A DNA stretch of 64,000 nucleotides from an uncultured Solirubrobacterales bacterium (lineage in GTDB: Bacteria > Actinomycetota > Thermoleophilia > Solirubrobacterales > Solirubrobacteraceae). Under the pieces are notes generated by a model that was given only the letters and a program-made list of their open reading frames with translations, was not told where the DNA came from and did no database searches. Of this stretch, positions 1 to 30,929 are shown piece after piece. Within the stretch, counting starts at the first letter, position 1. Each line of letters starts with the position of its first letter. A program made the position numbers and the translations under genes. The stretch covers positions 178,191-242,190 of the forward strand of contig CAWAVE010000008.1 of assembly GCA_963785435.1 (NCBI GenBank). Reading direction: 5' to 3'.

Positions 1-9
1 GCGACGAAG

Positions 10-255
10 ATGACGGCCGTGGCGACGCACCGCAGCGAGAGCCAGCTCGTAGAGGATGCGCTGCGCGCGTATGTCGTGGATGAGGGGCGCGGCGACGCCG
101 CGCGTGAGGACATGCGCCAGCTCCTTGACGAGTTGCGTGCGCGTCCCGAGCTAAACGACTTGGACGATGAGCAGTCGATGGCGCTCGCGGTTAGCGAGAC
201 TCGCGCGGTCAGACGCGAGCGGGCCGCCAAGGACCGAGGTCGCCCGGCCGGGTGA
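10..255 (+). CDS. type II antitoxin, ribbon-helix-helix/VapB-like (81 aa)
   Basis: Small ORF directly upstream of, and overlapping by 4 nt (252-255), a PIN-domain ORF; N-terminal RSESQLVEDALRAYV pattern typical of RHH antitoxins. Confidence 0.55.
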   Translation: MTAVATHRSESQLVEDALRAYVVDEGRGDAAREDMRQLLDELRARPELNDLDDEQSMALAVSETRAVRRERAAKDRGRPAG

Positions 256-680
256 CGACTGCTCTGCGGGCAGTGGCGGATGTCAACGTCCTCGTCCCGG
301 CGGCTCGCACGCCGAACGGGCTCTGCGGACGGCTGCTTGATGCGGCGATAGACGGGCGCTGGCGACCCGTGATCTCGCTAACATTGGTCCAAGAGCTTGA
401 GGATGTGCTCGCCCGACCGAAGTTCAGGGGTGTGCTTGGCCAGGAGACCACGGATCGCTTCCTCACGCGATTGCTCTCGATCTCGGAGTGGGCGCAAGAC
501 CCAAAGGGAGCGCCCGCCGCATTGACACGCGACCCCGACGATGACTATCTGCTCGCGCTTGCGCAAGCCAGCAACGTCGATGTGCTCGTCTCCGGAGATC
601 GCCATTTGACCGATCTCACAGACACACAGCCGCCGATCGAGACGCCAATGCAGTTCTCACAGCGCCTGGCTGAGCTATAG
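252..680 (+). CDS. vapC: PIN-domain ribonuclease toxin (VapC-like), 142 aa
   Basis: GTG start overlapping antitoxin stop; PIN hallmarks: N-terminal VADVNVLV (Asp), later acidic residues DDDYLLALA ... VLVSGD. Confidence 0.7.
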   Translation: MTTALRAVADVNVLVPAARTPNGLCGRLLDAAIDGRWRPVISLTLVQELEDVLARPKFRGVLGQETTDRFLTRLLSISEWAQDPKGAPAALTRDPDDDYLLALAQASNVDVLVSGDRHLTDLTDTQPPIETPMQFSQRLAEL

Positions 681-2411
681 CCGGATCTCGATCTGGGGGG
701 TGTCATTCGAGGGTTCGAGTCCCGTCGCTCCCGCCATTCGACCTATGTACGAACCCCGGCCCCGAAAATCGGGGTCGTGGTCGTCTTGGAGGGTTCCGGC
801 CTTATTTTGGGGCGCCCTGGGCCGTTTCTGGCCCGTGTGGGGGCGTTCCTTGGTCTCGCGCAGCTCTTGGATGAGCCGCGCGATGGTCTCATAGAGCGGT
901 GTTCGCTCTGCCTGGATGTTGTCGGGGTCTGAGACTACGAGCGCGAGAAACACGGCTTGGTTGACGAGCCGTCGGGCGCTCTCTGGCAGCGCCTCGTAGA
1001 TGACCTTCTCGTCCAGGATCGCCAGGGCGTCATCGAGGGCGGCCATCACGTCCTCAACCTCACGCTCGGCGGCGTCCGCCCACTGCTGCGCCTTGGCGCG
1101 CTCAGTCTCGATGCGCTCTTGCTCGGCCTTCAAGACCTCCTCGGAGACGCCGCCTTTGTAGTAGAGCTGCACGAGCTTCTGCTGCTCGCCGGTCAGGTCG
1201 TGCAGCCTGCGGGTGTGGCGGGCTGACTCACGGCGGGCAATCTCGCTCTTGGACTGCACGTAAGAGCGCAGGGCCTCACGGACTTCGTTTTGCTCGCTGG
1301 TTTTGTAGGTCTCGCGCTTGTAACGGCGCACGATCGCGCGTTCGGTGCGATCTACCGGGAAGTACGGCGCGGCGCACTGTTCCTCGCGTTGTACGCGGCT
1401 GAGGCAGGAGAAGTATTCGTACTGCCCGCCGCATTTGCCACGGTGGCGCCCGTAGCCGAGACGCTTCCCGCAGATACAGAAAATCGTGCCCTTGAGGTAG
1501 TGGTGGTGTTTGTGGGAGCGGTCTCCGCTGATGCGGTGGCTGTCGAGGACCTTCTGCACCTGATCGAAGGTGGCACGGTCGATCAGGGCGTCGTGGCGGC
1601 CCTTACCCTTCACGCCGTTGTGGGTGACTACACCCACGTAGTAGTCATCACGGAGCATCCGGTGGACCATGCTGCGCGTCATCGGTTTGCTCGGGCGCTT
1701 GAAGCTGCCACGCGTGCGCATCCCGGCACTCTCAAGAACGTCCGTGATCGTCGTGATGGTGTGGTCGCCGGTGGCGGCGAGATCGAACGCGAGCTGGACA
1801 TAATGAGCGCGGTCATCATCAACGGCGATTGCTGCGACCTCGCGGCCGGCCACGTTTTCGCGGACGTTCAGGTAGCCGATGCGGGCAACGCCGACAGTGC
1901 CACCATCGAGGAACTTACGTTCCAGGCCGACCTTGACCTTCTGTCCGTCGTCACGCGAGCGGAAGGCGTTGACCCCGGCCATGATCGCGAACAGCAGGAG
2001 TCCTTGGGGGCTGTCATCGACCGGCTCACGGGTGGACGTCAGCTTCGCGCCGTGGCTCTTGACCTGAGCCAGCAACCAAAAGGCGTCAGACTCCTCACGG
2101 GCGACCCGCGAGAGGTCATAGAAGATGACATAGGTCGGGCGTACCTCGCCAAGCTCTGAAAGCATCTGCTGGAGCGCCTGACGGCGGGTGTTGGTTCCAG
2201 TTCTACCAGGCTCGACATACTCACGAACGATACGCGCACCCAGTGAGGCGGCGTAGCGTTCGCAGGCTTGGCGCTGCGCCTCGATCGAGTACCCCTCTGG
2301 GTTATGCCCCGTGAGCTGCCCGGTGCTCGAAACACGCAGATAGATCACCGCCGTGATCTCCGACTCGAAGTCGAGCACATTAATTGGTGCTTCCTGCGTC
2401 AGTACGGTCAC
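675..2411 (-). CDS. large serine recombinase (integrase), 578 aa
   Basis: N-terminal resolvase catalytic domain (VIYLRVSSTGQ), recombinase domain, zinc-ribbon Cys cluster (CICGKRLGYGRHRGKCGG...FSC), coiled-coil C-terminus. Confidence 0.9.
   Translation of the reverse strand: MTVLTQEAPINVLDFESEITAVIYLRVSSTGQLTGHNPEGYSIEAQRQACERYAASLGARIVREYVEPGRTGTNTRRQALQQMLSELGEVRPTYVIFYDLSRVAREESDAFWLLAQVKSHGAKLTSTREPVDDSPQGLLLFAIMAGVNAFRSRDDGQKVKVGLERKFLDGGTVGVARIGYLNVRENVAGREVAAIAVDDDRAHYVQLAFDLAATGDHTITTITDVLESAGMRTRGSFKRPSKPMTRSMVHRMLRDDYYVGVVTHNGVKGKGRHDALIDRATFDQVQKVLDSHRISGDRSHKHHHYLKGTIFCICGKRLGYGRHRGKCGGQYEYFSCLSRVQREEQCAAPYFPVDRTERAIVRRYKRETYKTSEQNEVREALRSYVQSKSEIARRESARHTRRLHDLTGEQQKLVQLYYKGGVSEEVLKAEQERIETERAKAQQWADAAEREVEDVMAALDDALAILDEKVIYEALPESARRLVNQAVFLALVVSDPDNIQAERTPLYETIARLIQELRETKERPHTGQKRPRAPQNKAGTLQDDHDPDFRGRGSYIGRMAGATGLEPSNDTPQIEIRL
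700..746 (+). other. tRNA 3'-end-like fragment (T-loop GGTTCGAGTCC + acceptor strand CGCTCCC + G + CCA) with no 5' half: putative att core / integration-site remnant
   Basis: Sequence tcattcgagggttcgagtcccgtcgctcccgcca matches the canonical T-arm/acceptor/CCA layout but no D-arm/anticodon arm precedes it; lies inside the 3' end of the recombinase ORF; related copies at 20.4-20.75 kb and 29.72 kb. Confidence 0.45.
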
Positions 2412-2794
2412 ATATCCTCGTTTCTGTTGGGTAGTTGCCTGCTATCGCACGGCATCGTGAGCGAGGCTCCTTGACGCCGAATGCGTTTCCAGAGCCGCTG
2501 TTCAAGCTCCTGATTGCGCGCCAGCCTGTACGGGTCGGAAATCACGACACGGCGGATGCGCCCGTCCGATAGGTCATGCATCAATTGGTCAAGCGCGGGG
2601 CGGCACTCGGCCAAGCCGGACACGCCGACATCGGCATAGATAGCGCTAAGACGCAGTCCGAGAGCGTGCGCGTGCTGCTCGCAGGCTCGGTGCTGTCGCT
2701 CCAGGTCAATGCGGGTGCTTCGGTGATCGACGGTTGCCGTCCGCATGTAGGCGACGATCAAGGATTTAGTTGGTCTTTTCTGGATATCGTTCAT
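2408..2794 (-). CDS. resolvase N-terminal-domain-only protein (128 aa) with catalytic Ser replaced (YMRTATVDH instead of YxRVSTxxQ); probably catalytically inactive
   Basis: Alignment by eye to the resolvase catalytic domain of the adjacent recombinase; overlaps recombinase start by 4 nt (operon); AT-richer promoter-like region upstream (2795-2920). Confidence 0.55.
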   Translation of the reverse strand: MNDIQKRPTKSLIVAYMRTATVDHRSTRIDLERQHRACEQHAHALGLRLSAIYADVGVSGLAECRPALDQLMHDLSDGRIRRVVISDPYRLARNQELEQRLWKRIRRQGASLTMPCDSRQLPNRNEDM

Positions 2795-2920
2795 GCTTTT
2801 ACCTCCTTTTCTTGGTTAATTTGGCTTAACGATTTTCCCGTTAAGTCGTGATTTAAGCAACCTGTTAATTGGTGCTGCGAGCCGGTCAAGGTGTGTAACC
2901 CCGACCGACCCGCGTTTGTG

Positions 2921-3301
2921 TCACTTCAGCGCCTCCAAGCGCTCGGTGATGGCCTTCTTCCTCTCGGCGGCGCTGCCTTTGAGCGCTTCGTACTCCGACT
3001 TGGCCTCCTCGGCTCTGGATTTGGCGGCCTCGACCTCCCGGTCGATTGAGTCAATCGCCCGTTCGAGCGCTGCTCTTGCGTCAGCCAGCGCGTCATCGGG
3101 TGTCGTCTCACGGCGGCGGGTGCGTGGTTTGCTCTCGCCGCCCTCGAGCTTCTTCTTGTGGGAGTAGTAGGACCCGCGAACCGAATCGAAGGGCCTGCCG
3201 GTCTCCTCGGCGATCTGGCGGAAGGCGTCGGCCTTCTCGGTGCCGGCGGCGATCATCGCCTCGATCTGGTCGTATATCTCTTGGGCCTTGGTTACTGCCA
3301 T
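2921..3301 (-). CDS. hypothetical coiled-coil protein (126 aa)
   Basis: Internal ATG at 3299-3301 preceded by AAAGGAGAA RBS; Lys/Glu/Ala-rich heptad-like C-terminus; upstream part of the longer ORF has no RBS. Confidence 0.5.
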   Translation of the reverse strand: MAVTKAQEIYDQIEAMIAAGTEKADAFRQIAEETGRPFDSVRGSYYSHKKKLEGGESKPRTRRRETTPDDALADARAALERAIDSIDREVEAAKSRAEEAKSEYEALKGSAAERKKAITERLEALK

Positions 3302-3473
3302 GCGTGTTCTCCTTTGGGTTGAATGACCTTGGCGGCAGACAGAAAGACCTGGGTCCTTCCGCCCACCACAGGGCCATCCAGGCCGCCGGAGGCGCCGACA
3401 CTGAGTCGGCAAGATTGGTCTGCCGTGCTCATCGCGGCGCCTCCGGTTAGGCTCGTCTGGGCCACTCGAGGGC

Positions 3474-3854
3474 TTAGTCGTCCTCGGTCATGGCTTCCAG
3501 CGGAATGGTGCCCGCCTGACCTAGATGCCAGGCCACCTCAAAGCGGTCGGTATCGAAGTCGGCCAGCACGTCCAGTGACGTAACGATCAGGTAGTCAAGC
3601 TCATGCACTCTGGCGAGCTCCACGGCCTGATACAAACCAGGTCGCACAAACCGAAATTCACGGATGTCCACGAACTCACCGACCACTTCGGCCTTGAGCC
3701 TCGCCGCTTCTCGACGACAGAGTTCCCCTTGCCGAGCAACCGACAGTTCGGTGACGCCGTGTTTTGGGTTTGGTTCGCACATGTAGATAACGGCTCGCCA
3801 GACCTTTGGCTCCTCCTGACTGCGTTCGTCACTGTTGCGTCTTTCGAAATTCAT
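3474..3854 (-). CDS. resolvase-like domain protein lacking catalytic serine (127 aa)
   Basis: ATG at 3852-3854 with AAGGGAGA RBS; sequence AVIYMCEPNP..LSVARQ..LIVTSLD resembles resolvase N-domain topology but YxRVS motif is CEPN. Confidence 0.45.
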   Translation of the reverse strand: MNFERRNSDERSQEEPKVWRAVIYMCEPNPKHGVTELSVARQGELCRREAARLKAEVVGEFVDIREFRFVRPGLYQAVELARVHELDYLIVTSLDVLADFDTDRFEVAWHLGQAGTIPLEAMTEDD

Positions 3855-3922
3855 CTCTGATATCTCCCTTCTGCAAGACCTCCTTTTGTTGTTATGGGTT
3901 TCAGGGGGCTGCCGGCCCTGCT

Positions 3923-4933
3923 TCATGGCAGTACCTCCTGCTGTGCCGCTACTTCGGCCCAGTGGGTGAGGCGGGCGCAAGCGATGTCGACGTACTCTGG
4001 CTCCCGCTCAATTCCGAGGAACTGTCGTCCCTCGAGTACCGCTGCCGCGCCGGTGGAACCGCTGCCGGTGAACGGGTCAAGCACCATGCCGCCGGGCGGC
4101 GTCACCAATGCCACCAACCAACGCATCAACTCGATGGGCTTGACGGTGCGGTGAATGTTGCGCCGCAACCGTGGCGGGTGGTCGCGGCCGGTGTAGATCT
4201 GTACCGACTGTGTCGGGATCTGTTCGCACCCGGCTTCTCGCTCGTCCCGAGACGCCTTGGCGCAAAAGAACATCCGACTCAAGTTCTCCCGTTCACCGTC
4301 AAGCAGCTTCGCGGGACATTCGGCAACGCATCCTGCCTCGGTGCAGTTGCGAGCGTGGGAGAGCGTGAGGTGTGCGGGCCAGTATCCGTTCGTTCGCGTC
4401 GCCTCGATATTCAAGGTTCCAGTGCCCCACCGGGCACGGTTGCGGGCGGCCGTGCCGACGAACGGCGAGCGAGCCATCAAGATCGGCTCGAATGCGGGCT
4501 TGAGCGCGGTGCCGAGTCCGTTTGGCCAACGCCGGGATTTCGGTAGTCCTTGGGCGTAGAGCCACAACAACTGGTCGCGCACTTCAAGCCCGGCGTCCTC
4601 GATTCCACAGACGAGGCGGTGGAAGGTGCGCGGAGCCCCGAACGCGATCAGGTGCCCACCCGGCTTCAATACCCGCCGAGCTTCGTTGGTCCACACCCGC
4701 GTCCAACGCTCAAACACCTCACTGGCAGCCACATGCTCCTGGCCGCTGACGGCTCGGCGGATATCCGCACCGTCCCAGGCTTCCCCGCCGAAGTCGATCC
4801 CATACGGCGGATCGGTCACGATCGCGTCGACGCAGGCGTCGGGAAGTTTGGCGAGCGTCATCAGCGCGTCGGCCTCGAGCAACCGCCAAACCTCGCTGCT
4901 ATCGGAGTAGAGGGAGAGCTTGGGCGTACTCAC
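3923..4933 (-). CDS. DNA methyltransferase (N6-adenine/N4-cytosine, beta-class order: motif IV DPPY before motif I FTGSGS), 336 aa
   Basis: TDPPYG motif IV near N-terminus and LDPFTGSGSTG motif I near C-terminus; Cys-rich insert; GTG start overlaps stop of upstream gene; no adjacent restriction enzyme gene seen. Confidence 0.85.
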   Translation of the reverse strand: MSTPKLSLYSDSSEVWRLLEADALMTLAKLPDACVDAIVTDPPYGIDFGGEAWDGADIRRAVSGQEHVAASEVFERWTRVWTNEARRVLKPGGHLIAFGAPRTFHRLVCGIEDAGLEVRDQLLWLYAQGLPKSRRWPNGLGTALKPAFEPILMARSPFVGTAARNRARWGTGTLNIEATRTNGYWPAHLTLSHARNCTEAGCVAECPAKLLDGERENLSRMFFCAKASRDEREAGCEQIPTQSVQIYTGRDHPPRLRRNIHRTVKPIELMRWLVALVTPPGGMVLDPFTGSGSTGAAAVLEGRQFLGIEREPEYVDIACARLTHWAEVAAQQEVLP

Positions 4934-5838
4934 GAGCTCGCCCCGCTCGTCAGGAGCGCCAGCGCATCAGTGGTAGTGGCGACCACGAACAGACGGTGGG
5001 CGGCAGCCGGTAGCTGCGTGAGCGTCTCGCGGACGGCCTCGGCGCGATCCTCGCCCGGCACGATCCAGAGCACGCGGGGGAACACGCCACGGGCGGCCTG
5101 CTCGGTGCCGGTACGGAAGTAGTCGTGGTATCTGGCGGCTTTGGCTTTGACGGTCGAGAGCGCCTCGGTCGCCATGTCGGCCTCGATGAACCACGAGAAC
5201 TCGTAGTCGCCACGGGCGAGCTTCACGAAGGAATCGGGCTTGAGTACCTGCCGGGCGCCGAACCCGACCATGTAGGGACGCCAACACTCCGGCTCCGGCT
5301 CGAACCGGATCAACTCAGCCTGTTCCTGGCGCTCTGAGGCGACCAGGTCGACGTAGAGCTGGGTCACGGCCAGCGTGTGCGCGAGATAGCGCGCTCCTGG
5401 AGTGTGCGCCCGACGTACTCGCCGCTTTGACGGCACCACAGCTTGCAAGAGGTACTGTCCGGCCCGTCCCACGGCGAAGGTGGTACTGGCGCTCCCTGAG
5501 CGCACGCCACCGACCCGACGCGCGAGCGGCTGGAGCACGTCTAGCCGAGATAGGCGAGCCAGTCCCCGCCGTGCCACCCGTGCGCGAGCGTTCGGGGAGA
5601 CCTCATCCCACAACAGGGCTTGCAGTTGGGCTCCACTCATCACCCGGAAGCGGCTGACCAGCCGCAGCGCTTCATGGTCACGATGGGAGAGCTGCTCGGA
5701 GATGGCGGCTAGCTGGCGGGGAGACAAGCGCCTGGGAGGAGGCAGGTCTTTCGTTGGCGTAAGGCTCGCGGAACCCGCACCACTAGGCGACTTCAAGGCT
5801 CGGCTACTCGACGCGAGCGGATCAGCGAGCGGATTCAC
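4930..5838 (-). CDS. replication-relaxation family protein (putative relaxase-like), 302 aa
   Basis: Family recognised from overall sequence pattern and from its translational coupling (4-nt overlap) with the coupling-protein-like ATPase, as typical of actinobacterial integrative elements; family call moderate. Confidence 0.55.
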   Translation of the reverse strand: MNPLADPLASSSRALKSPSGAGSASLTPTKDLPPPRRLSPRQLAAISEQLSHRDHEALRLVSRFRVMSGAQLQALLWDEVSPNARARVARRGLARLSRLDVLQPLARRVGGVRSGSASTTFAVGRAGQYLLQAVVPSKRRVRRAHTPGARYLAHTLAVTQLYVDLVASERQEQAELIRFEPEPECWRPYMVGFGARQVLKPDSFVKLARGDYEFSWFIEADMATEALSTVKAKAARYHDYFRTGTEQAARGVFPRVLWIVPGEDRAEAVRETLTQLPAAAHRLFVVATTTDALALLTSGASS

Positions 5839-8006
5839 GCCTGCCTCCTTCGAGAACCGACGAGATCGTCGCCTTCATCGGCGCGGGGCTGCTCTTGGCG
5901 GTCAGTGTTCGGTGGCATTGGCGTGCTGCCAAAGAGGAGCGCTGAGCGGTCACGGATCGCGGCGCCTTGGCCGGTCTTTGCTGGCAGTGGCTCGGTGCGG
6001 CCGGTCACGACTGCGACCGAGCTACCCGTCCCGGTGCCGACACGTGCCGCGACCTCGAAGCGCCCCAGGGCCATCAGGTCATCCCCCGAGATACCGGGTA
6101 GCTCCCGTGCGATGGTCGCGGCTTCGATCGCTCCCGCTCTGAAGCTGACCAGCGTCGCCAGGTTCCCGAGCAGCGCCGAACGGGTCGGCTCCGGCACCCG
6201 GCCCAAGGTCTGCACCGCCACGGTCAGGCTGGCTCCGAGCCCGCGTGCCCGCTCGGCGATCAGCTCAAGGTTGCTCGGCAGACCGTTGACGATCGTCGCG
6301 GTCTCATCCACATAGATGTTGAGTAGGTGCCGCCGCTCAGGTGGCAACGCCACCCGTGCCTCGATCGCGGCCCAGGTCGCACTCATCACCGCCGAGCCGA
6401 CCAGAGTCGCAGCCTCGCCAAGCGTCCCTGGCGCCAGCGACACCAACAGGAATCGCTTCTCGGCCAGCAACCGCCCGATATCCAGCTTGGGATCACGGCT
6501 CGCGATGACGGCCCGCACTCGTGGACGCGCCAGCAACGCCATCGTCCGAGAGAGCGGAGCCTGTACCACGTCCACCTTGGCCGCCGGCGATAGCGCCTCG
6601 TAGTTCTGCCACGAGTCACGCAGGAACCCATCGCTGAGCTTTGCCACAGCCGCGCGACGGTAAGACTCGTCCGCGAACAGCCGACCAAGATCCATCAACG
6701 TCGCGCCGGGAACCTCGCTTAGCGTCCTGATCCCGAGCCGCCCGAAGGTCTCCGAGCGGATACCCCACTCAGGCACCAGCGACTTCAACGTCCTGATCAG
6801 AGCGTCCGCGCGAGCGTCCGGATCGCCGCCGTGCAGCACATCCAAACCAGGCGTAGGCCGCGTGTCGTCTCCTGCGTCAAGCACCACGATCCGCTCGGCG
6901 TGCTCGCGCGGGACACGCTCAAGGACGGTGTCGATCAGGTCGCCCTTCGGATCGATGACCACGCCGCCGTGACCGGCCTGAATGTCGCTGAGAATGGAGT
7001 TAGCTAGAAGTACGCTCTTGCCGACACCGCTCGGCCCGACTACGGCTACGTGGTGGGTCGCGGCCTCATCCGAAAGCGCTACCGGCCGCTCGCCGCTCCA
7101 ATCCCTCGCGATGAACAACCGCCGACCGGTGCGGGCGAGCCTGCGCGTCGCCAGGATCTCCGGCGAGCCGACCTCCACTCCCGGCACCGCCTCAGAACCC
7201 AGCACCCCGAGCAGCGGAAGCATCTCCGCAGTAGATAGCCAGCCTGATGTGCGCCCGACCTTCGGGAGCGCGGCCAGCGTGCGGTTGCCACGCTCATAGG
7301 TAGCTCGGACGCCGCCGGTGAGACCCCGACGACTACGCAGCACGTTCTCGACGTGCGAGGCCAACTCGCGAGCGCGAGCCTTAGTTGCAGCCCGAATGAG
7401 GACCAATCCGCTGACCCTCAACCCTTTGGTGGCGGTCTTTGCCGCCCAGGCTCGGGCGATCTCCCGCTGTCGTGATGTCGGCTCCTCCACCTGCCGTCGA
7501 GAGGGAGCACTACCGGGCGAGAGCGCCCAACGGATAACGACCGTCTCATCTCTGCGCAGTCCAGCTAGGCCGGTCAGCAGGGAGCGCGAAGCCGCGACGG
7601 CGTTGTCTGTCTTGAGGATGCTCGTGGGAACGAACAGCCGCAGACTCAGCGTGGAGGCATCACTTGGCGAAGGTGACGCCTCGCTGATGCGCAAACTCGG
7701 GATGACGCCGGTCAGGCTCGCGCGGACCGATTCACGCGACGCCTCGGGTACGAGCAAGCAGTGGGTAATGGAGCCCTCGCTTGCCACTAGCTCGGCAACC
7801 AGCTCGGTGGTATAGGGCAGACCGCCAGCTAGCCCATCCCAAGCGGCGGATACCTGCGCCGCCTCAAGGTTCATCGGGTAGCGAGTGGACAAACGGACCC
7901 GGTTGGCGCGCATCGTCTCAGCCTGTGCGTACTCGTGAGCGGCGATCCCGGCAAGCATGGTCGAGCCGCCTCCAGCTGCAACGAGAGCTAGGAGATCAGC
8001 GTTCAT
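5835..8006 (-). CDS. type IV coupling-protein-like / HerA-DUF87-like P-loop ATPase (conjugal DNA transfer family), ~723 aa
   Basis: Walker A VGPSGVGKS followed by DPKGD (DUF87/HerA-like signature), Walker B-like hydrophobic run + DE; start chosen at ATG 8004-8006 (MNADLL), maximal ORF extends to TTG at 8150. Confidence 0.6.
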   Translation of the reverse strand: MNADLLALVAAGGGSTMLAGIAAHEYAQAETMRANRVRLSTRYPMNLEAAQVSAAWDGLAGGLPYTTELVAELVASEGSITHCLLVPEASRESVRASLTGVIPSLRISEASPSPSDASTLSLRLFVPTSILKTDNAVAASRSLLTGLAGLRRDETVVIRWALSPGSAPSRRQVEEPTSRQREIARAWAAKTATKGLRVSGLVLIRAATKARARELASHVENVLRSRRGLTGGVRATYERGNRTLAALPKVGRTSGWLSTAEMLPLLGVLGSEAVPGVEVGSPEILATRRLARTGRRLFIARDWSGERPVALSDEAATHHVAVVGPSGVGKSVLLANSILSDIQAGHGGVVIDPKGDLIDTVLERVPREHAERIVVLDAGDDTRPTPGLDVLHGGDPDARADALIRTLKSLVPEWGIRSETFGRLGIRTLSEVPGATLMDLGRLFADESYRRAAVAKLSDGFLRDSWQNYEALSPAAKVDVVQAPLSRTMALLARPRVRAVIASRDPKLDIGRLLAEKRFLLVSLAPGTLGEAATLVGSAVMSATWAAIEARVALPPERRHLLNIYVDETATIVNGLPSNLELIAERARGLGASLTVAVQTLGRVPEPTRSALLGNLATLVSFRAGAIEAATIARELPGISGDDLMALGRFEVAARVGTGTGSSVAVVTGRTEPLPAKTGQGAAIRDRSALLFGSTPMPPNTDRQEQPRADEGDDLVGSRRRQA

Positions 8007-8372
8007 GGCCACCCGCGCTTTCCCGGTGCTGCCGCTTACCAGGAGAGGGAGCCGGACGTGTGGGTTTATCCTTCGCCGCGCGTTCCCGGCGCTGCTGAAC
8101 CAACCGCTTCCCCTGCAAAAAATAGACATAGGCAAGGAGATCAGTATCAATCTCCGTACGCCTAATCCCCTTGATATGAATTCTCCGTGCCATAAGTAAT
8201 TGCACCTCCTTTCACTGTGAGTTGTTGTTACATAGCTACCTCCTTGTTCGTGTTTTGTTCGGTATCAAACCTCCTGAGTATTGATCAACTGAAATGCTTG
8301 AGTCAAGGACTTTTTTACGTCACCAGGACTGAATCCGGCTGTGCTTTGGGACAAGGCCGAGCATCGTTTTAG

Positions 8373-21556: not shown

Positions 21557-21577
21557 CAGGTCGACAACGACTTCATC

Positions 21578-22030: not shown

Positions 22031-22139
22031 GTGTGGACGGCTTTCAACTATCGTTGCTCTGCGGGTGATGGTGACCGCGTGGAAGCCCGTCACTACTTAT
22101 AACACCGTCGCCTTCGCGGCGATTCCCCGCGCTCCAATC

Positions 22140-22450: not shown

Positions 22451-22600
22451 CAGCGCTTTGGTTCGAGCTCTGCCTTGATTTGGGCCCACTCGTAAACCAC
22501 GACCCTCACGAAGATGCCACGTCCCGAGCCTTGACAAGCCGCGCCCGCTTAGCGAGACTGTTCGACTGTTTAGACCCAATGGCGAGGGAGGGGCCGGGAA

Positions 22601-23967: not shown

Positions 23968-23989
23968 GAACTTTTGCCGGGCATCCGAT

Positions 23990-24015
23990 AGTTTCGGTAG
24001 CATAATACCGAAACT
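23990..24015. promoter_or_regulatory. perfect 10-bp inverted repeat agtttcggta-gcataa-taccgaaact upstream of 604-aa gene
   Basis: Read directly, in AT-richer intergenic segment. Confidence 0.4.
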
Positions 24016-24032
24016 AATCTAGATCCAGTCCA

Positions 24033-24210
24033 GTGTCAGACCTCTCGTCCCATACGCTGCGCGTGCTCCGGGCCGCGCTGAAGCTCAAGGCATTTACCAT
24101 GCCACAACTCGCGACAGAGGCAGGAGTCAGCTATGAGTCGGTGAAGCGCACCGTCCGGGGGAGAAGGGGACCACCATGCGCCCCACCGGGCAGACTGAGC
24201 CGCGCGGAGT
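24033..24210 (+). CDS. possible small HTH DNA-binding protein (~59 aa), below ORF-track cutoff
   Basis: Translation ...HTLRVLRAALKLKAFTMPQLATEAGVSYESVKRTVRG resembles an HTH; overlaps start of downstream gene by 35 nt; GTG start uncertain. Confidence 0.3.
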
Positions 24211-25990
24211 AGGTCGTCCTGCGGAAATTTGGGAAGTCGTTGATCGGGCTCCGTTGGAGGAGAGACTCGCAGCCGTCGGTGAGGAGCTGCGCGTCACCCT
24301 TCCGAATGAGCTTCCCTCCGACCTCCCAGAGGTCGTGAGCACGGATGCGACCCTTGCGGTCGCGGAAAATGAACTGGTCTTCGCTACGCGTGCCCGCGAT
24401 CCGGTAGACGCAGCGACGTTTGCGCGTCACGCGATCGCGATACTGCAGGATACGGGAATCTCCCTAAATAACTCTGATGCCGCGATCTCGCCGCCGGGGA
24501 CTCTCGTTACGGAAGACAATCTAACTGAGCGCGAAGCCCGCGCCTCTATCGTCGGCGCACTAGCAGAATTCATTGTCAGTGACGAGGCCAGCGGCCTAGG
24601 CGGGCCGCTCTGGCGACACGCCTTCCGCCGCCTCTCGTCTGGAGTGTTGGCACAAGGCCTCAGTGTTCAGCAGCACTTCCTTATCGACCTTGTACGCATC
24701 GCCGACGAACGCATCACGGCGCACGATACTCTTCGGCGGCAGCCTCGAGAGCTAGCCGACTGGATCGTCGCACACCTCGAAAGCTCGGCAACCACGAGTC
24801 CGGACAGCCAGGACGACATTCGCCCGACAGATGAGCACACGAGGCTTGCCCTTGCGTGCTTGATTGCTGAAATCGCCTCGGGTGCCCGCGACCTTAGCGC
24901 TGATGCGCGCGAAAGGTTGCACCTCATTGTTCGCCAAGGGTTCGCTGCTGGGGGTGCTCCGCCATCGACCACTGTGAAAATGTTGGTCGATGGTCTTTGC
25001 GAACTAGCCCTCTCGGATGACGGGGAGGCGGCCGGCGCGGCGCGTGAAACACTGCTAGTGATTCGCCAGCCTCGCAGTAGCGACTTCTGGTATCGACTGA
25101 GATGGGCATCGCCCGACGTGTCCATGCCAAAGATATTTGAGGGTCTTGCCCACATCGATCTCGCGGAGGCGTTCTCCTACCTTCAGACCGAACTCGCCGA
25201 GTCGGACGCGGTCGAGGATGTAAGAAACGTTCTTATCACGTGCCTTCCGGCGCTTGACTACAGCAACCGCACGGCCGCCCAGGACCACTTCGCAGAATTC
25301 CTAGCTACCGTTCCGGTTGATCTCCGGATCCAGTTCGCGCCGCTTCCGACGGTTGCCGGACTTACCTGGCAGCCCGCTCCATTTGAGAGGCTTCTTGTTC
25401 GCCACTTCCTTAGCATCTTGATGCGTTGGCGTGCATACGCAAATAGCGATAGTCGAGACCCGCGTGTTCTTCGCCAGACCGAAGCCCTTGCACGCGAGCT
25501 TAAAGCTCTTGCCGCCGAAGTGCTCCTTCTTATGAGCCGTGATGAGCGGCGACGTCTCAGCCAGGTCCTAGCCGTAAACCTTTTCGATCAGCCCGCGGCC
25601 TCCCTTTGTGTGCCATTGCTACTGGAGCTAGGACTTGAGTCGGACGTCGCCCGCTCAGTGATCGAGTCAGCGCCTAGCAACGAGGAAGCATGGACTGAGA
25701 TAGCGGATTGGTATTGGGATGTCTGCCCGCGGTCTGAACTAGACGCGGGCCGTCGTAACGCACTTATTGCTGCGCTACGTGCCGGGCTTAAGCAGTACGG
25801 TGACATCTTTCTTTTCGCTCTCGCTAAGCGCGCATTGTCAGAAGGAGAGCTCTTGAGCGAGCTGACGGACAATCCTGACCTGGAGCCGAGAATCAAGCTT
25901 GAGCTTGAGATCGCAATGACACAGTCCTACGGCACCGCGGCAACGGACCTTGAGGCAGTGGTAAGCAACTTCGACGAATCGCTCGAATAG
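24176..25990 (+). CDS. hypothetical large protein (604 aa), predicted all-alpha, no recognisable catalytic motif
   Basis: ATG with GAGAAGGGGA RBS; lower GC. Confidence 0.7.
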   Translation: MRPTGQTEPRGVGRPAEIWEVVDRAPLEERLAAVGEELRVTLPNELPSDLPEVVSTDATLAVAENELVFATRARDPVDAATFARHAIAILQDTGISLNNSDAAISPPGTLVTEDNLTEREARASIVGALAEFIVSDEASGLGGPLWRHAFRRLSSGVLAQGLSVQQHFLIDLVRIADERITAHDTLRRQPRELADWIVAHLESSATTSPDSQDDIRPTDEHTRLALACLIAEIASGARDLSADARERLHLIVRQGFAAGGAPPSTTVKMLVDGLCELALSDDGEAAGAARETLLVIRQPRSSDFWYRLRWASPDVSMPKIFEGLAHIDLAEAFSYLQTELAESDAVEDVRNVLITCLPALDYSNRTAAQDHFAEFLATVPVDLRIQFAPLPTVAGLTWQPAPFERLLVRHFLSILMRWRAYANSDSRDPRVLRQTEALARELKALAAEVLLLMSRDERRRLSQVLAVNLFDQPAASLCVPLLLELGLESDVARSVIESAPSNEEAWTEIADWYWDVCPRSELDAGRRNALIAALRAGLKQYGDIFLFALAKRALSEGELLSELTDNPDLEPRIKLELEIAMTQSYGTAATDLEAVVSNFDESLE

Positions 25991-25997
25991 AGGGCGA

Positions 25998-28427
25998 GTG
26001 ACTACTGCGCGCGCTCAACGATTTCTCGAGGCATTTTCTGCTGCGGTACACGACCGTACTCTGGAAGAGAATAACTATCAGATATATCATTTCTTTGACG
26101 CTGACGTTCTCCTGCGGCTTATCTTTGGCTTCCGGGATGCATTTAACCTTCAGCTGATTCTCGACAGTAAAGCAAAAGATACTGATGGTTTGTCTGGCCA
26201 GAGGCTCCTTATGGGTGCGCTGTTGGGGCAGGGAATAGGTACACCAACGAACCTTCGCGCTCTGCCGCCCCATCTTTACGAGGTGCAGCGCGCGGTATCG
26301 ACGCGACGACCGATGGACTCACAACGCTTTCAATTTATCTCTGATCTCCTCGAAATCGATGAGCTGGTAGATGACCTCGTTAATGCGCTGCGAAATGATG
26401 ACCCGGATGCGCTTTTTGAGCGCTTTCTTCACTATAGTCCCCAAATATTCTACGGGGTGGAGCTTCTTAGTGGCGGGTGGGAGTCGAGATTGCGACGACT
26501 ACTGCGGCTAGGAATCGGATCCGGGAGTCCGCTCGATAGCGGCGCGGATATCCTTGAGAGTCAGGCTTTCGACCTAATTCTCCGGCATGTTGATGCCTCT
26601 CAACGAGACGACCAGTCTCGAGGCAGGGCAGGCGGTATATCGGGAGTCCGAGATGCCATGGCGCTCGCGCTCGTCGCTCGTCATATTTCCGAGTCGACGG
26701 TACAGCAGCCTCCCTTTGCAGTAATGAGATTCTATACGGAGACCGACAGGATTAGGCGAGCCTGGCGCAATAGAGACGTGCGCGACACACTAACCTATGA
26801 GATTCGAGAGCACGAGATTCCATCAATGGATCTCGGCGAGCACGGCGTTCTGCGCACCACCGAGTACTATCTCATCCGCGCTTTGTTTCCGAGGCTCGCC
26901 TATCTCGAAGACCCGCCTTCCCACGAGAAGGATGTGTCAGCACAGAGCCTCGTACGCGAGAAAATATTGGATATTTACACCATCGGGGACGAACTTGCGA
27001 AGACCGCGAGACGGCTAAGGCTAGGGGGGGTAACCGAGACGGCGCTAGCCGAGTTTCGTGTAGGAGATAGCACAATCGGGCGCTTTATGGACGAGGTAAG
27101 CGACTTGTCGTCTTGTGGTGCTGCTTGGGAACAGCTCATGACCACCCGCGTGCGGCCAGGTATCCCAGAGAGATTGCTTGAGCAGCTGACGAGAGTGCGC
27201 GAAATGAAAGAAGAGCGAGCAGACGACTTGGCCCAGTCACTTGAGATGCAAATTGGCATGCTAGATAAACGGACGCGAGAAGTCGCGGTATTCACCGAAG
27301 CGTACGTGCATGTGCATGAGGCGCTCGTCCGGTGGAAGGGTGCCGTGAGGCCAAGGTTCGGACGGCTCGGCGATCACGTAGGGCTTCGCCGGTGGGGTTT
27401 CTTGGTGGACGATATCGATGAGGAAGCTCTCGCAAATCTTGTCGACGCATACGATGACTGGCGGTCTGAGGCTAACGGCGACACTTCTGTCTGGCGCACT
27501 CACTTCACGATCGAACTTACACATCGGATGAGAGACCTAGCAGGAGCCCCATTGAATGACGGAGACGAAATAGGATCAGCTGTGGCGCTGCTCGGGTTCC
27601 TCTGGCTTATCGAGGACTACGCTTCGATCGCTAACAGAGGGCGAGCCCTCTTGGACGGAATTGGTTTCAGGCTCTCGCGTAGCGGGAGCGCACTCGCGAG
27701 AAAGAGCGACGCCGACGGGATGTGGGAAAGGGTTGGAGGTGCGGTCGAGAATCTGATTGCGGTTGCTGACGTAGCCCTTCTAGCCGCCCGGGTGCAGGAC
27801 GAGCCTCGCTCTCCAGATGTGGACGAGCTAGTTGCTCAGGCGCGGTCACGGGCTGCGCACCTTATGCCACCCCATCGGCGGTTTCCTGCGACCGAGAGTT
27901 CAATTGCCTTTGGTGGCGCATTTATTCGTTTTCGCATCTGGCGGGCGCTAAACCATGTCTTGATGGCGATAGGTGTCGGTGATGCACAGCGGCTTAGACA
28001 TCCGGCACTCGCGAAAGAAAGCCTTGAGATGAGCTCTCGCGCTCTTGAACTCACTGATCGTGAGGATCCCATGCACATTCTCCTTCTCAATCACTGTGTC
28101 TATGTGGCGAGTATCGCAGGGCTCCAGGTAGACAATCTTCCTGACCTAGTGCGCCAGTTGATTGCTTACAGGCCCGTAGGCACGCTGGAAGGTGGCTGGT
28201 CATACCACCTTGACTGTACCCTTGCTTATCATTACTATCGGCGTGCGGCTGCACTGATCGGCCACAGCGACCGCGACGCGAGGCTCGTCGGATCAGCTCG
28301 TAAGGACCTTCGGGAGGCGGAGCGGTGGCTTGATCTGGTGCCTGACGATGTTACTGACGCTGAGGTCATCGCCCATCGTGGATTGGTACGTGAGCTTGAA
28401 GTTGAACTGGAGGCATGGTTAGACTGA
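25998..28427 (+). CDS. hypothetical large protein (809 aa), no recognisable motif
   Basis: 8-nt intergenic gap to upstream gene (operon); lower GC. Confidence 0.75.
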   Translation: MTTARAQRFLEAFSAAVHDRTLEENNYQIYHFFDADVLLRLIFGFRDAFNLQLILDSKAKDTDGLSGQRLLMGALLGQGIGTPTNLRALPPHLYEVQRAVSTRRPMDSQRFQFISDLLEIDELVDDLVNALRNDDPDALFERFLHYSPQIFYGVELLSGGWESRLRRLLRLGIGSGSPLDSGADILESQAFDLILRHVDASQRDDQSRGRAGGISGVRDAMALALVARHISESTVQQPPFAVMRFYTETDRIRRAWRNRDVRDTLTYEIREHEIPSMDLGEHGVLRTTEYYLIRALFPRLAYLEDPPSHEKDVSAQSLVREKILDIYTIGDELAKTARRLRLGGVTETALAEFRVGDSTIGRFMDEVSDLSSCGAAWEQLMTTRVRPGIPERLLEQLTRVREMKEERADDLAQSLEMQIGMLDKRTREVAVFTEAYVHVHEALVRWKGAVRPRFGRLGDHVGLRRWGFLVDDIDEEALANLVDAYDDWRSEANGDTSVWRTHFTIELTHRMRDLAGAPLNDGDEIGSAVALLGFLWLIEDYASIANRGRALLDGIGFRLSRSGSALARKSDADGMWERVGGAVENLIAVADVALLAARVQDEPRSPDVDELVAQARSRAAHLMPPHRRFPATESSIAFGGAFIRFRIWRALNHVLMAIGVGDAQRLRHPALAKESLEMSSRALELTDREDPMHILLLNHCVYVASIAGLQVDNLPDLVRQLIAYRPVGTLEGGWSYHLDCTLAYHYYRRAAALIGHSDRDARLVGSARKDLREAERWLDLVPDDVTDAEVIAHRGLVRELEVELEAWLD

Positions 28428-28567
28428 GTTATCACCGGTAGCGCATGGTCCAACGGTGGCCGGTTGGTTGAACACATCCGCGCGGTCGCGACCGCACTCG
28501 ACAGTCGTCATTGGGCGCACGAGCGACTCGGCTTTTGTCTCCGATGAGCCCGATGACCATGGCGCTT

Positions 28568-28589
28568 AGCTGTTGAGGCCTCAACAGCT
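28568..28589. terminator. perfect 11-bp palindrome agctgttgagg/cctcaacagct, candidate terminator hairpin 140 nt after 809-aa gene
   Basis: Read directly; no U-tract. Confidence 0.3.
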
Positions 28590-29067
28590 GCGGCGAGTGC
28601 AGCTGGACTCCATTTTGGCCGGGCCCCACGACACCCAATACGCATCATTCTCGCACATACTCCCACCTGGCGTGTGCTGGCCTCGCTGGAGTTCGTCTGA
28701 GGTAGACGCCTACGGTGCCTCGTGGATCGTTGGCTTCGTCACTGGCGTTGAGCAGAAGGTCCTGCAGACCGCTCGGCGTGCTCGTCCTCGACGCCGACGA
28801 CGATCGTTAGCTTGGCGTCGGATTGCCGACATGGGCCTCGACGTAGCGCGGATCGACCGCCGCATCGAAATTGCCGGGCTGAGGGTCGGGATCTGTCCAC
28901 GGGTCGTGCGCCATATTCATCTCCGAGGCAGCTTACGCCTGCGCGGCAGGGAATCCCAGGCCGTTACGATCGGCCAGCTCCAGAGCAGCTCACCACAAGC
29001 CTTTTGGGACGACCGTATGGCACAAGTCGCGATGCTATTCTGTTCATGTGACCACGGAGGTGCCCAC

Positions 29068-29323
29068 ATGAAGGTTGTGACCGTCTGTGACTTCCGCGAC
29101 CACGCGACTGAGATGTTTCGCTCGGAGGACGTGATCCTGGTCACGCGCGAAGGGGCGCCAGCGGGGTTATTCCTGCCGTGGAACACGCCGGAGTTGCCGG
29201 TCGAGGTTCACAAGGGAGGTGTTCCTGCGACTATCTGAGGAGGTCGGGACGCAGCTAGCAGCGTCGGGGGTAAGCGAGTCAGAGGTGCTGGAAGATTTCG
29301 CTGCCTCCCGTAGTAGTCGCTGA
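29068..29323 (+). pseudogene. Phd/YefM-family antitoxin, copy 1, frameshifted (extra G near 29215 vs copy 2)
   Basis: MKVVTVCDFRDHATEMFRSEDVILVTREGAPAGLFLPW.. nearly identical to intact copy at 29954; caagggaggtg vs caaggaggtg. Confidence 0.55.
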
Positions 29324-29709
29324 CGCGAACGTAGTCCTCTTAGCGCTGATCGGTGGCCGCGCCCGCCTCGTCATCGCCTCCCCTCAAGGACCAGCCTGTA
29401 TCGCAACCCGGCGGTTGCCAAGGACAGCGCCCGCCACGTTCCTCGCCTCGCCGCAAAGCGCCGTCTCGATCAGGCACTTCTATTCGCGGCCCTGCGGTCA
29501 TGCCGATCGTGTGGAAGCCGGCGGCGACCTATGACGATCTGCGCGGGAGGCTGAACGGCGCACGCCGCTCGTGACCCCGACGATTGGCCGACCGTCGCGC
29601 TGGCCCTCAAGCTGGACCTACCAGTTGGTCCCAGGACAAGGATCTACGCGACGCTGGCGTCGAGGTCTTCACGACGGGTGATCTGCTCGACGCCCTACGT
29701 CAGCGATGA
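29311..29709 (+). pseudogene. PIN-domain toxin, copy 1, decayed (frameshifts/stops)
   Basis: Begins VVADANVVLLALIGG like copy 2, then loses frame. Confidence 0.4.
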
Positions 29710-29764
29710 GGCGGCTCGGCCCAAACCTCGATCTCCTCGATCTTCGGGGGCAAACCAGGGACCC

Positions 29765-29910
29765 CGTCGCTCCCGTACTTTACCCCCGCCCTCCTTGTCG
29801 CTTCTTCGTGTCGGTTCTCGAAGAACGGCAGGAATGAGGGCTTTGGCTGGACGGCTACGACGCGGCCGTCATCGAGCCAGATACCGTCGAAGATGAGGCT
29901 CAGGAAGTGG
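29765..29910 (-). pseudogene. ~145-bp 3'-terminal fragment of a serine recombinase gene (about 90% identical to 20755-20900), preceded by degenerate att-like core at ~29720-29764
   Basis: cgtactttacccccgccctcc..tgtcgcttcttcgtg..ggttctcgaagaacggcaggaatgagggctttgg shared by both loci. Confidence 0.5.
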
Positions 29911-29953
29911 CGCCGCGATGTTATCCTTCTCGTGTGACCACTGAGATGCCCAC

Positions 29954-30208
29954 ATGAAGGTTGTCACCGTCCGGGATTTCCGCGACCATGCGACCGAGAT
30001 GTTTCGCTCGGAGGACGTGATCTTGGTGACGCGTGACGGGACGCCAGCGGGGTTCTTCTTGCCGTGGGACACGCCGGAGTTGCCGGTTGAGGTTCGCAAG
30101 GAGGTGTTCCTGCGGTTGTCTGAGCAGGTCGGCGCGCAGCTAGCGGCTTTGGGGGTAAGCGAGTCAGAGGTGCTGGACGATTTCGCTGCCTCCCGTAGTA
30201 GTCGCTGA
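29954..30208 (+). CDS. type II antitoxin, Phd/YefM family (84 aa)
   Basis: MKVVTVRDFRDHATEMFRSEDVILVTRDGTPAGFFLPW.. characteristic of YefM/Phd. Confidence 0.75.
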   Translation: MKVVTVRDFRDHATEMFRSEDVILVTRDGTPAGFFLPWDTPELPVEVRKEVFLRLSEQVGAQLAALGVSESEVLDDFAASRSSR

Positions 30209-30596
30209 CGCAAACGTAGTTCTCTCAGCGCTGATCGGTGGCCGCGCCCGCCACGTCATTGCATCCCCGAAAGGGCCAGCCTGCGTCGCCACCCAGGCAG
30301 TCGCAGAAGAGATCGCCCGCCATATTCCTCGCCTCGCCGAAAAGCGCCATTTGGATCAGGCACTTCTATTCGCGGCTCTGCAGGTCATGCCGATCGCGTG
30401 GAAGTCTGGGGCTACCTATGACGAACTTCGGGAGGAGGCTGAGCGGCGCATCGCCGCTCGTGATCCCGATGATTGGCCTACCGTCGCGCTGGCTCTCAAG
30501 CTGGACATACCTGTCTGGTCCCAGGACAAGGATCTACGCGACGCTGGTGTCGAGGTCTTCACGACAGGCGATCTACTTGATGCCCTACCTCAGTGA
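30195..30596 (+). CDS. PIN-domain toxin (VapC-like), copy 2; no canonical start codon in frame (body starts VVVADANVVLSALIGG) - possibly non-canonical initiation or early pseudogene
   Basis: +1 frame relative to antitoxin; PIN N-terminal D, later acidic residues and QDKDLRDAGVEVFTTGD tail; no ATG/GTG/TTG found between upstream TAA and the PIN core. Confidence 0.5.
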   Translation, partial: VVVADANVVLSALIGGRARHVIASPKGPACVATQAVAEEIARHIPRLAEKRHLDQALLFAALQVMPIAWKSGATYDELREEAERRIAARDPDDWPTVALALKLDIPVWSQDKDLRDAGVEVFTTGDLLDALPQ

Positions 30597-30929
30597 GGCG
30601 GCTCCCTCCGACCTCGATCTCCCCGCCATCCGGAGGCAAGCCAGGGACCGACCCAATCGAGGCCGCGACCTCTCTGGGCCTCCGCGCCCACAGGGGTCTC
30701 GCTGACGAACGGCGCTCGCCAATCACCGATCCGCAGTTTCCACTCTGGTGTGTTCGTGAGCTTACGGATCGCTCCAGGCCTCCCGGATTCTCCGCAAGCC
30801 AGGCCGCGTCGCTCACTCGGAGTTCTGCAGCGCCTCATCCAGCGGCACCGTGTGCCCGTCAGCCAGGTCCGCCCAGCCTTCAGCCGCGGGCGGCCTTGCC
30901 GTCATCTCTCAAACGGTAACGCCCCGGCG

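Follow-up and report, generated by a model that had tools for sequence, protein, structure and literature searches.

How do genes and relics of large serine recombinases (LSRs), toxin-antitoxin (TA) modules and pieces of a tRNA gene come to stand one behind another over thirty kilobases of a bacterial chromosome? The question is raised by a stretch of 64,000 nt from contig CAWAVE010000008.1 of an uncultured Solirubrobacterales bacterium (assembly GCA_963785435.1), which is called the window here. We conclude with good confidence that integrative elements stand in tandem at the 3' end of tRNA-Asp(GTC) and that positions 1-30649 are the distal stretch of this array, built by two distant LSR families, A and B. 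The elements are named E1 to E5 from left to right. The left end of the window, where the target is recognised, holds the following features.

1-255 (in-window open reading frame, ORF, 10-255), forward strand: antitoxin gene of E1, cut by the window start and overlapping the start of the PIN_3 gene.
252-680, forward strand: PIN_3 toxin at the right end of E1 (PF13470, E = 3e-17; TIGR00305, E = 6e-15).
681-710, forward strand: element-side (P) arm of E1, of B-family type by homology to the arm in a relative, locus L022.
707-736, forward strand: displaced 3' fragment of tRNA-Asp(GTC) with T-arm, acceptor strand, G73 and CCA, exact over 711-736.
734-757, forward strand: P' arm of the A-family attachment site attP (CCATTCGACCTATGTACGAACCCC), an inverted repeat of the P arm at 20383-20393.
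675-2411, reverse strand: LSR A, an intact LSR of 578 amino acids (aa) with Resolvase, Recombinase and Zn_ribbon_recom domains.

Window positions 711-736 agree with positions 52-77 of tRNA-Asp(GTC) at 26 of 26 nucleotides. The frame of LSR A reads through this fragment, and its last ~25 codons come from attachment-site (att) and tRNA sequence. The catalytic domain of LSR A (PF00239, E = 1e-24, motif YLRVSS) is followed by matches to PF07508 (E = 9e-11) and PF13408 (E = 3e-5), the latter, with 24.7 bits, being slightly below the 25.3-bit cutoff. A protein-seeded scan of one genome per species yielded 18 Solirubrobacterales/Solirubrobacteraceae loci (L001-L018), all from metagenome-assembled genomes (MAGs), whose LSR A homologues are 57-91% identical, and these place the window in the family Solirubrobacteraceae of the Thermoleophilia. 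In L001-L003, L006, L007 and L013-L018 a complete tRNA-Asp(GTC) runs convergently into the LSR A homologue and overlaps its 3' end, and the window 25-mer GGTTCGAGTCCCGTCGCTCCCGCCA occurs exactly at this junction in ten of these loci. Aligned with the full tRNA-Asp of ten relatives, the window follows them from 707 rightward, and to the left the tRNA body is replaced; the complete tRNA-Asp must sit left of the window. The replacing sequence at 681-710 is homologous to the arm that lies left of a displaced tRNA-Asp fragment in L022 (GCCGRATCTCGAT...GGGGT...TCGnGGGTTCGA). By analogy, an element of B-family type, E1, would end on the right with the TA module at 10-680, and its recombinase and tRNA would be situated to the left of the window. 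The TA / LSR A junction recurs, with the same genes, in an independently made read-set assembly (Logan ERR11571141). The antitoxin, whose in-window part has no Pfam match, is a 109-aa product in the independent assembly, with a weak Pfam match of ribbon-helix-helix (RHH) type.

An earlier reading of the letters and ORFs, the sequence-only reading, had proposed at this place a TA module (10-680), a tRNA-like sequence (700-746) and an intact recombinase (675-2411) whose C-terminus is translated across that sequence. The antitoxin ORF with its PIN_3 gene, the exact tRNA match and the complete, read-through LSR A bear out these proposals, and its suggestion to look for the target tRNA leads to tRNA-Asp(GTC), which the 3' fragment matches. 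It went on to see the same architecture recurring to the right, where we annotate the following.

20310-20411, forward strand: right end of E2, with the attP(A) P arm at 20383-20411 (GGGGTTCGCACGTTGTCCCGGTCTCCCCG), aligned with the block behind A-element remnants in loci L048 and L018.
20412-20762, forward strand: three 117-bp units (repeat family D7), each running from a decayed P' arm to a P arm of an older A-type element (TRF; arm similarity by direct reading).
20705-21556, reverse strand: truncated LSR B of E3, C-terminal 282 aa (Zn_ribbon_recom PF13408, E = 2e-10).
22056-22244, forward strand: weak match to a PIN_2 toxin, possibly a decayed relic (tblastn E = 0.08, 33% over 63 aa).
22248-22453, reverse strand: left end of E4, the relic of a B-family recombinase C-terminus (tblastn to the L022 LSR, 47% identity, E = 5e-12).
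22849-28427, forward strand: E4 cargo, three consecutive ORFs (372, 604 and 809 aa) that match no family.
29068-29709, forward strand: decayed Phd-like antitoxin and PIN_2 toxin, right end of E4 (86% identical to 29954-30596).
29718-29775, forward strand: P arm of E4 followed by the 13-nt tRNA-Asp core CCCGTCGCTCCCG (29763-29775), an exact match to tRNA positions 62-74.
29763-29913, reverse strand: last 150 bp of an LSR B gene, the sole remainder of the E5 recombinase (91% identical to 20750-20900).
29954-30208, forward strand: uninterrupted E5 antitoxin (the 86% repeat).
~30198-30596, forward strand: uninterrupted E5 PIN_2 toxin (PF10130, E = 8e-26).
30600-30649, forward strand: P arm of E5 (82% identical to 29725-29763, family D13).

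A comparison of L048, L018 and the window identifies the right end of E2. About 100 bp before 20412 align with the blocks that precede the P(A) string in those two loci, and the string is confined to these contexts. Being limited to the right ends of A elements, it is the right-end (P) arm of the family, and E2 therefore extends over 734-20411, an intact conjugative-type A-family element of 19.7 kb. In the 18 relatives the 10 kb upstream of LSR A were searched for another tRNA fragment, and only L022 has one, the A elements being longer than the flanks searched. Behind E2, TRF reports at 20384-20762 a period of 117 with 3.0 copies at 99% identity. Each unit contains a further att-like relic, in which the tRNA-like string is merely degenerate (CCCGAAGCTCCCGCCA), and we read the units as att scars of older A-type elements. 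At 99% identity they must stem from a recent amplification rather than from three independent integrations, so that the idea of three separate integrations was rejected.

The P' arm TACTTTACCCCC of E3 begins at 20763. The truncated LSR B has no catalytic domain, which its L022 relative has; it is 46% identical to that full-length LSR, which adjoins tRNA-Asp, and 26% identical to LSR A over 143 aa. Its last 150 bp (20750-20900) return at 29763-29913, where the translation has 88% aa identity to LSR B over 52 aa. Between these two places lies the relic at 22248-22453, a region matched by blastn in L072, L085 and L108; owing to this internal relic, the view of E3 and E4 as a single intact B element was rejected. 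The weak PIN_2 relic beside it has a 12-nt string, CCCTACGTCAGC, in common with the toxin 3' end at 29694. Further to the right, 29028-29763 and 29914-30649 are 86% identical, each being a pair of Phd-like antitoxin and PIN_2 toxin; the E4 antitoxin is frameshifted and the E4 toxin carries frameshifts and stops. The 13-nt core is exact both at 721-733 and at 29763-29775, and the second copy coincides exactly with the boundary between repeats D4 and D13. Displaced tRNA-Asp 3' fragments thus stand at two internal junctions, with 26 nt at 711-736 and 13 nt at 29763-29775, and LSR genes or relics lie directly right of the junctions at 737, 20763, ~22248 and 29776.

The recurrences that the sequence-only reading had listed fare unequally against these results. 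Its unit of decayed TA, core and recombinase end at 29068-29709/29720-29764/29765-29910 is found as described, with an exact core and the 150-bp end of LSR B. At 20385-20750/20705-21556 the truncated recombinase is real, but the supposed TA module is instead the right arm of E2 followed by the tandem repeat of att-like arms. In the decayed remnant at ~22140-22450 the recombinase relic holds up and the PIN relic is weak. For 29954-30596/30600-30660 the TA module and the element-side arm stand, but there is no att core and no tRNA sequence. That every element is capped by a TA module is contradicted by E2, which is intact and carries none. The recombinases, which had been called related, are all serine recombinases, but they belong to two distant families with different crossover points.

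The state of these elements changes along the stack: E2 is intact, E3 is without its catalytic domain, E4 keeps a recombinase relic and a broken TA module, and E5 consists of 150 bp of recombinase and a TA module. The B-family elements contained entirely in the window (20763-30649) are decayed. Intact elements toward the tRNA and decayed ones at the distal side are what successive insertion predicts. Under this scheme each integration would regenerate a complete tRNA at the tRNA-proximal junction and displace the earlier elements outward, so that the newest element would be nearest to the tRNA, left of the window, and the oldest furthest away. The order, newest first, would be E1 (the B-family-type end with RHH and PIN_3), E2, the three 117-bp scars, E3, E4 and E5. 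The crossovers of the two families would be offset, and each family would leave the tRNA-side arm of the other usable.

Comparable stacks in the relatives are in line with this scheme. In L022 and L028 a complete tRNA-Asp is followed by a 5.9-kb B-family element, a displaced tRNA-Asp 3' fragment and the 3' tail of LSR A. In L018 and L050 the order is tRNA-Asp, an LSR A remnant, HicAB, GGTTCGCAGCTCGTCCCGAAGCTCCCG, TACTTTACCCCC and LSR B; L048 has the GGTTCGCAGCTCGTCCCGAAGCTCCCG string behind an A remnant and then the P' arm of an L022-type B element; and in L011 the A element is preceded by the fragment of a different tRNA and an RHH / BrnT-like pair. The P(A) arm is thus kept behind A-element remnants in L048, L018 and the window, joined there to P' arms of family B. 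Such P(A)+P'(B) junctions (20762, L018, L048) are the product expected if an A element enters a tRNA-Asp that is already backed by a B element, and they point to a general rule that the newest element adjoins the tRNA. The successive insertion and decay of older copies at a tRNA 3' att site, as earlier proposed, are thus supported: the 3' fragment fits a real tRNA, the junction is met with the tRNA complete in many related genomes, and stacks of these junction types arise independently in L022/L028, L018/L050, L048 and L011. Directly upstream of the truncated LSR B copy of L018 lies a gene for an IS21-type IstB ATPase (4661-5890); this suggests that the copy was cut by an insertion sequence, at another point than the copy in the window.

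An exact-pattern scan of metagenome contigs with the 3' half of tRNA-Asp returned 98 loci, 24 of them with a Solirubrobacterales-type upstream region. Among these 24, an A-family element stands behind tRNA-Asp in 11 and a B-family-type junction in 10, most of the latter with an LSR 45-47% identical to the C-terminal half of LSR B. Hence 21 of 24 are occupied, and L095, L104 and L112 were assigned to neither family. B-family LSRs adjoin tRNA-Asp in L022, L028, L059, L072, L085, L108 and L117. As a separate observation, many non-Solirubrobacterales loci among L025-L121 show the tRNA-Asp 3' end followed immediately by a conserved AT(T/A)TTATCAATGACTTAGCC string, which may mark the terminus of a further widespread integrative element or be a conserved terminator.

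Both arms of the A-family site can be read. When 20383-20411 is joined with 734-757, the reconstructed attP(A) is GGGGTTCGCAC-N31-GTACGAACCCC, 53 bp in length, with an inverted repeat that matches at 10 of 11 positions and a second symmetric motif further in, CGAA plus 4 nt, that flanks the CC at tRNA positions 71-72 on both sides. In the P arm the motif GGGTTCG starts at 25 nt from the centre; it is mirrored at 24-25 nt in P' and starts at 20 nt in the T-loop of the tRNA. In serine integrases the zinc-ribbon (ZD) motif lies 5 bp nearer the centre in attB than in attP (PMC3783163), and the spacing of 25 nt against 20 nt matches this shift, which indicates canonical attP/attB geometry. The identity block at the E2 ends, CCCGCCATT (GCTCCCGCCATT for the 117-bp units), includes the predicted centre, and family A would accordingly be predicted to recombine at or beside this CC. 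In the relatives, other members of the LSR A family (68-85% identical) stand in the same layout at tRNA-Ser(GGA), tRNA-Ser(TGA) and tRNA-Gln, and GTACGAACCCC is invariant beside tRNA-Asp, tRNA-Ser and tRNA-Gln. A more diverged copy stands at tRNA-Lys, where GGAAACCCAC replaces it; at all these tRNA targets the motif keeps an equal distance from the CCA.

For family B, the sequence at the 29763 junction is P arm, CCCGTCGCTCCCG, TACTTTACCCCC; its outer inverted repeats GGGGGCAAA/TTTACCCCC enclose a spacer of 24 nt whose centre is G|T in CCCG|TCGC, and the ends of the L022 B element share CCCGTCGCTCCCGCC. From this junction and this shared block, the crossover of family B would fall ~10 nt upstream of that of family A, within CCCGTCGC; the exact crossover dinucleotides of both families are predictions of this kind. 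We also observed that in L017 (11685-11763) five nucleotides (GTCCC) are duplicated between T-loop and acceptor strand of the tRNA-Asp beside the LSR A homologue; this duplication gives the tRNA arm the attP-type (+5) spacing and could be a scar or an element-locking change.

What limits the array may be described from its composition and its far flank. The window has an overall guanine-plus-cytosine content (GC) of 65%; from position 1 to ~33000 it is ~60%, with a third-codon-position GC of 0.72-0.80, and past ~33 kb it is ~70%, with 0.85-0.95. Since both values differ from those in the remaining window, the stack region appears as a compositionally foreign island, and a self-comparison of the window found three significant repeats within it. 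Beyond the stack lies one feature that ties it to the chromosome.

32937-35321, forward strand: UvrA class-II paralogue, chromosomal flank past the stack (TIGR00630, E = 2e-200, below cutoff).

This gene has 82% nucleotide identity to a copy in L048 that lies 7.2 kb from tRNA-Asp. Because L048 joins the tRNA-Asp and the paralogue, 32937-35321 is the conserved far flank, and the end of the stack must therefore fall between 30650 and 32937. Within the window ARAGORN finds no complete tRNA and there is no RNA family at Rfam gathering thresholds, the 3' fragment being too short for either.

Several points weigh against a tandem array at tRNA-Asp. The complete tRNA-Asp and the recombinase of E1 fall outside the window, and excision and recombinase activity are predictions. 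An empty tRNA-Asp site in a close relative was not found among the 98 metagenome loci, 24 of them of Solirubrobacterales type. The spacer of attP(A) is odd (31 nt), leaving the central dinucleotide ambiguous by one base. The 117-bp units, as said, do not count as three integrations. At the far-end junction, 30649, no tRNA fragment is seen, core and CCA both being missing, and homology stops at ...CCAGGGACC. The arms of E4 and E5 share merely the short CTCGATCT motif with those of E1 and L022, and a MAFFT alignment of the four element-side arms misaligned the two pairs, homology being solid for E1 and L022 alone.

The best surviving alternative is that local segmental duplication or unequal crossing-over within one composite island made the repeats, instead of separate integrations. 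In its favour, 29028-29913 is followed directly by 29914-30649 as a direct repeat offset by 886 bp, and the head-to-tail 117-bp units are explicable by amplification only. However, the two TA copies are 14% divergent, one decayed and the other uninterrupted, the LSR B 3' ends lie 9 kb apart at 91% identity, and unit 2 of the 886-bp repeat has no third recombinase fragment behind it. The repeat boundaries fall exactly on the tRNA core, and junctions of these types are met beside other neighbours in other genomes. Duplication thus accounts for the 117-bp array and may have had a share in the 886-bp repeat; it does not account for the stack as a whole, as the origin of which we hold it improbable.

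Another alternative is an assembly artefact, in which a MAG would string together variants of one island from several strains. All the relatives come from MAGs, and junction repeats are typical places of mis-joining; yet the Logan assembly reproduces the junction of E1 and E2, the elements differ in gene content and so are not variants of one island, and comparable stacks appear in several independent assemblies, which makes such an origin very unlikely. That the tRNA similarity is accidental or compositional and the recombinase fragments unrelated debris has hardly any probability left: although the 12-mer core, with one mismatch allowed, is found 3 times against 2.16 expected in shuffled sequence, which is a chance frequency, the core draws its significance from exact copies that sit precisely on repeat boundaries, and the 26-nt tRNA-Asp match is exact and its junction is identical, with a full tRNA, in more than 20 independent loci, a recurrence in related genomes that the sequence-only reading had named as the test of chance similarity.

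Returning to successive integration at tRNA-Asp, a further idea may be put forward tentatively. The A-family recombinases may read the universally conserved T-loop sequence GGTTCGA as their zinc-ribbon motif, in which case the attP arm would be a tRNA mimic with a 5-bp insertion, and the mutually regenerated sites of the two families would make tRNA-Asp an open-ended landing pad; we consider this possible, though on balance doubtful. If true, reading of the T-loop could explain how close relatives (68-91% identical) move among tRNA-Asp, Ser, Gln and Lys, the serine integrases of the A family would be retargetable by nature, with a code of specificity that can be read, and tRNA-Asp would almost never be empty in this clade, as the occupied sites sampled suggest.

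The TA modules follow a pattern of their own. Pairs stand at recombinase-distal ends in E1 (PIN_3) and in E4 and E5 (PIN_2), and likewise in relatives, namely HicAB in the A-type remnant of L018 and the RHH / BrnT-like pair in the element left of the L011 junction; no TA module is found at the right end of E2. In the window an overlapping small antitoxin gene precedes a toxin with a recognised domain at 10-255/252-680 (PIN_3) and 29954-30208/~30198-30596 (PIN_2), and the in-window antitoxins have no significant Pfam match. Such distal modules probably stabilise their elements and persist as the last remnant. E5 would be a TA module that outlived the deletion of everything else, and the decay of the E4 module may have been tolerable if the E5 antitoxin cross-neutralises the E4 toxin. 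Direct reading shows no ATG, GTG or TTG in the E5 PIN_2 frame between the upstream stop (30156) and the first conserved Asp. The start choices at 30156-30351 are CTG (30186) and ATT (30180) alone, the decayed E4 copy has the same sequence, and the gene may use an unusual start or translational coupling, or be silent.

E2 contains in addition the following backbone and cargo.

2408-2794, reverse strand: 128-aa ORF upstream of LSR A with a serine-recombinase catalytic domain alone (PF00239, E = 2e-16, profile positions 1-101 of 145).
2921-9347, reverse strand: E2 backbone with a 163-aa protein, an N6/N4 DNA methylase, a Replic_Relax protein, a 771-aa FtsK/TraD-like ATPase and small ORFs (Pfam; NCBIfam TraD P-loop match).
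12929-13216, forward strand: conserved helix-turn-helix (HTH) regulator (HTH_31, E = 8e-13).
13538-13804, forward strand: small 88-aa ORF, recognised by conservation.
17838-18518, reverse strand: effector of one-transmembrane (1TM) type, like that of cyclic-oligonucleotide-based anti-phage signalling systems (CBASS; PADLOC, E = 2e-27).
18807-20009, reverse strand: CBASS-like oligonucleotide cyclase (PADLOC, E = 3e-64).

The 128-aa ORF has a clear homologue only in L001, and a further ORF at 3474-3980 on the reverse strand has a weak resolvase match (E = 3e-4); the layout of the two beside LSR A resembles DsiB/DsiA and CcrB/CcrA. The backbone is collinear with that of at least 12 relatives, over its full length in L001 and others. 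Its Replic_Relax protein is clear (PF13814, E = 2e-39), and for the 771-aa ATPase there are weak P-loop matches alone (AAA_16, DUF87, TrwB, a TraD fragment) and no Pfam match to FtsK_SpoIIIE. The block 12929-13916, with the HTH regulator and the 88-aa ORF, is kept in L007, L009, L011, L013, L014 and L017; homology to L013 stops near 13916, and beyond it lies variable cargo, to which the CBASS-like pair (17838-20009) at the right end belongs. Palindromes lie in two intergenic gaps, at 9395-9430 (36 bp, 94%) between transfer genes and cargo and at 12779-12822 (44 bp, 82%) upstream of the HTH regulator, both being candidate operator or transfer-origin sites. The three large ORFs of E4, without Pfam or PADLOC match, may form an uncharacterised cargo system. 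Outside the island, two adjacent paralogues of 639 and 624 aa with 67% nucleotide identity occupy 54991-58781 on the reverse strand.

Regarding known systems, the closest description is that of the Dehalococcoides ssrA islands (McMurdie et al. 2011, PMC3146451), which stand in tandem downstream of tmRNA, each bounded by a repeat of the 3' end. They carry beside attL a reverse-strand integration module, in which a serine recombinase of ~540 aa is followed by a small catalytic-domain-only protein, and which some of the islands have lost (PMC3146451). The 578-aa LSR A with the 128-aa ORF at 2408-2794 repeats the DsiB/DsiA arrangement, as far as layouts can be compared. In contrast, the target here is tRNA-Asp and not ssrA, the host belongs to the Actinomycetota (Thermoleophilia), two distant LSR families share one site with offset crossovers, insertion is in the acceptor strand and not the T-loop, and the backbone is of conjugative type (FtsK/TraD-like plus Replic_Relax).

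The integrative conjugative elements of actinomycetes (AICEs) at Mycobacterium tRNA-Leu (2011, PMC3218068) are also actinobacterial elements seated in a tRNA gene; they carry a serine integrase together with an FtsK-like translocase and a protein of replication/relaxase type, to which the 771-aa ATPase and the Replic_Relax protein of E2 would be candidate counterparts. Tandem AICEs at one tRNA have been described for those with tyrosine integrases, and integration of serine recombinases into tRNA genes is called rare, with tRNA-Leu alone listed (PMC3218068). The present elements differ in that they occur in Solirubrobacterales and target tRNA-Asp, Ser, Gln and Lys; in E2 no replication initiator of RepSA, RepAM or Prim-Pol type was detected, Replic_Relax (PF13814) alone being found instead, and no Tra/Spd set was identified. 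The large serine integrases of phages (A118/LI, Bxb1, phiC31), whose attP of ~50 bp has inverted outer motifs (Rutherford et al. 2013, PMC3783163), share with LSR A the domain set (Resolvase, Recombinase, Zn ribbon) and, as far as the reconstructed sites show, the length of attP and the 5-bp shift in attB. Unlike them, the elements described here are conjugative or mobilisable islands that use the T-arm of a tRNA as an attB arm and have no recombination directionality factor identified.

In terms of process, accretion of tandem islands is familiar from the integrative and conjugative, integrative and mobilisable and cis-mobilisable elements (ICE/IME/CIME) of Streptococcus and from Islander/TIGER islands at tRNA and other sites (PMC5704250, PMC4383910). 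In both cases one site-specific integration follows another, restoring the target and leaving displaced pieces behind, and gene-less, att-flanked remnants of CIME type resemble the 117-bp units and E5; the Streptococcus and Islander arrays are, however, almost all made by tyrosine integrases, with longer identity blocks. The pile-up of islands at a tRNA site is thus already known in kind and is met here in an unstudied bacterial group. Against this background the window is a clean case of island accretion with an age gradient, in which TA modules outlast their elements. For an uncharacterised LSR family both attP arms and the tRNA attB can be read, with sister lineages at four other tRNAs, which is raw material for understanding, and perhaps engineering, the target choice of serine integrases. 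And integration into tRNA genes by serine recombinases, called rare elsewhere (PMC3218068), is dominant at one tRNA across the Solirubrobacterales, a poorly studied soil clade.

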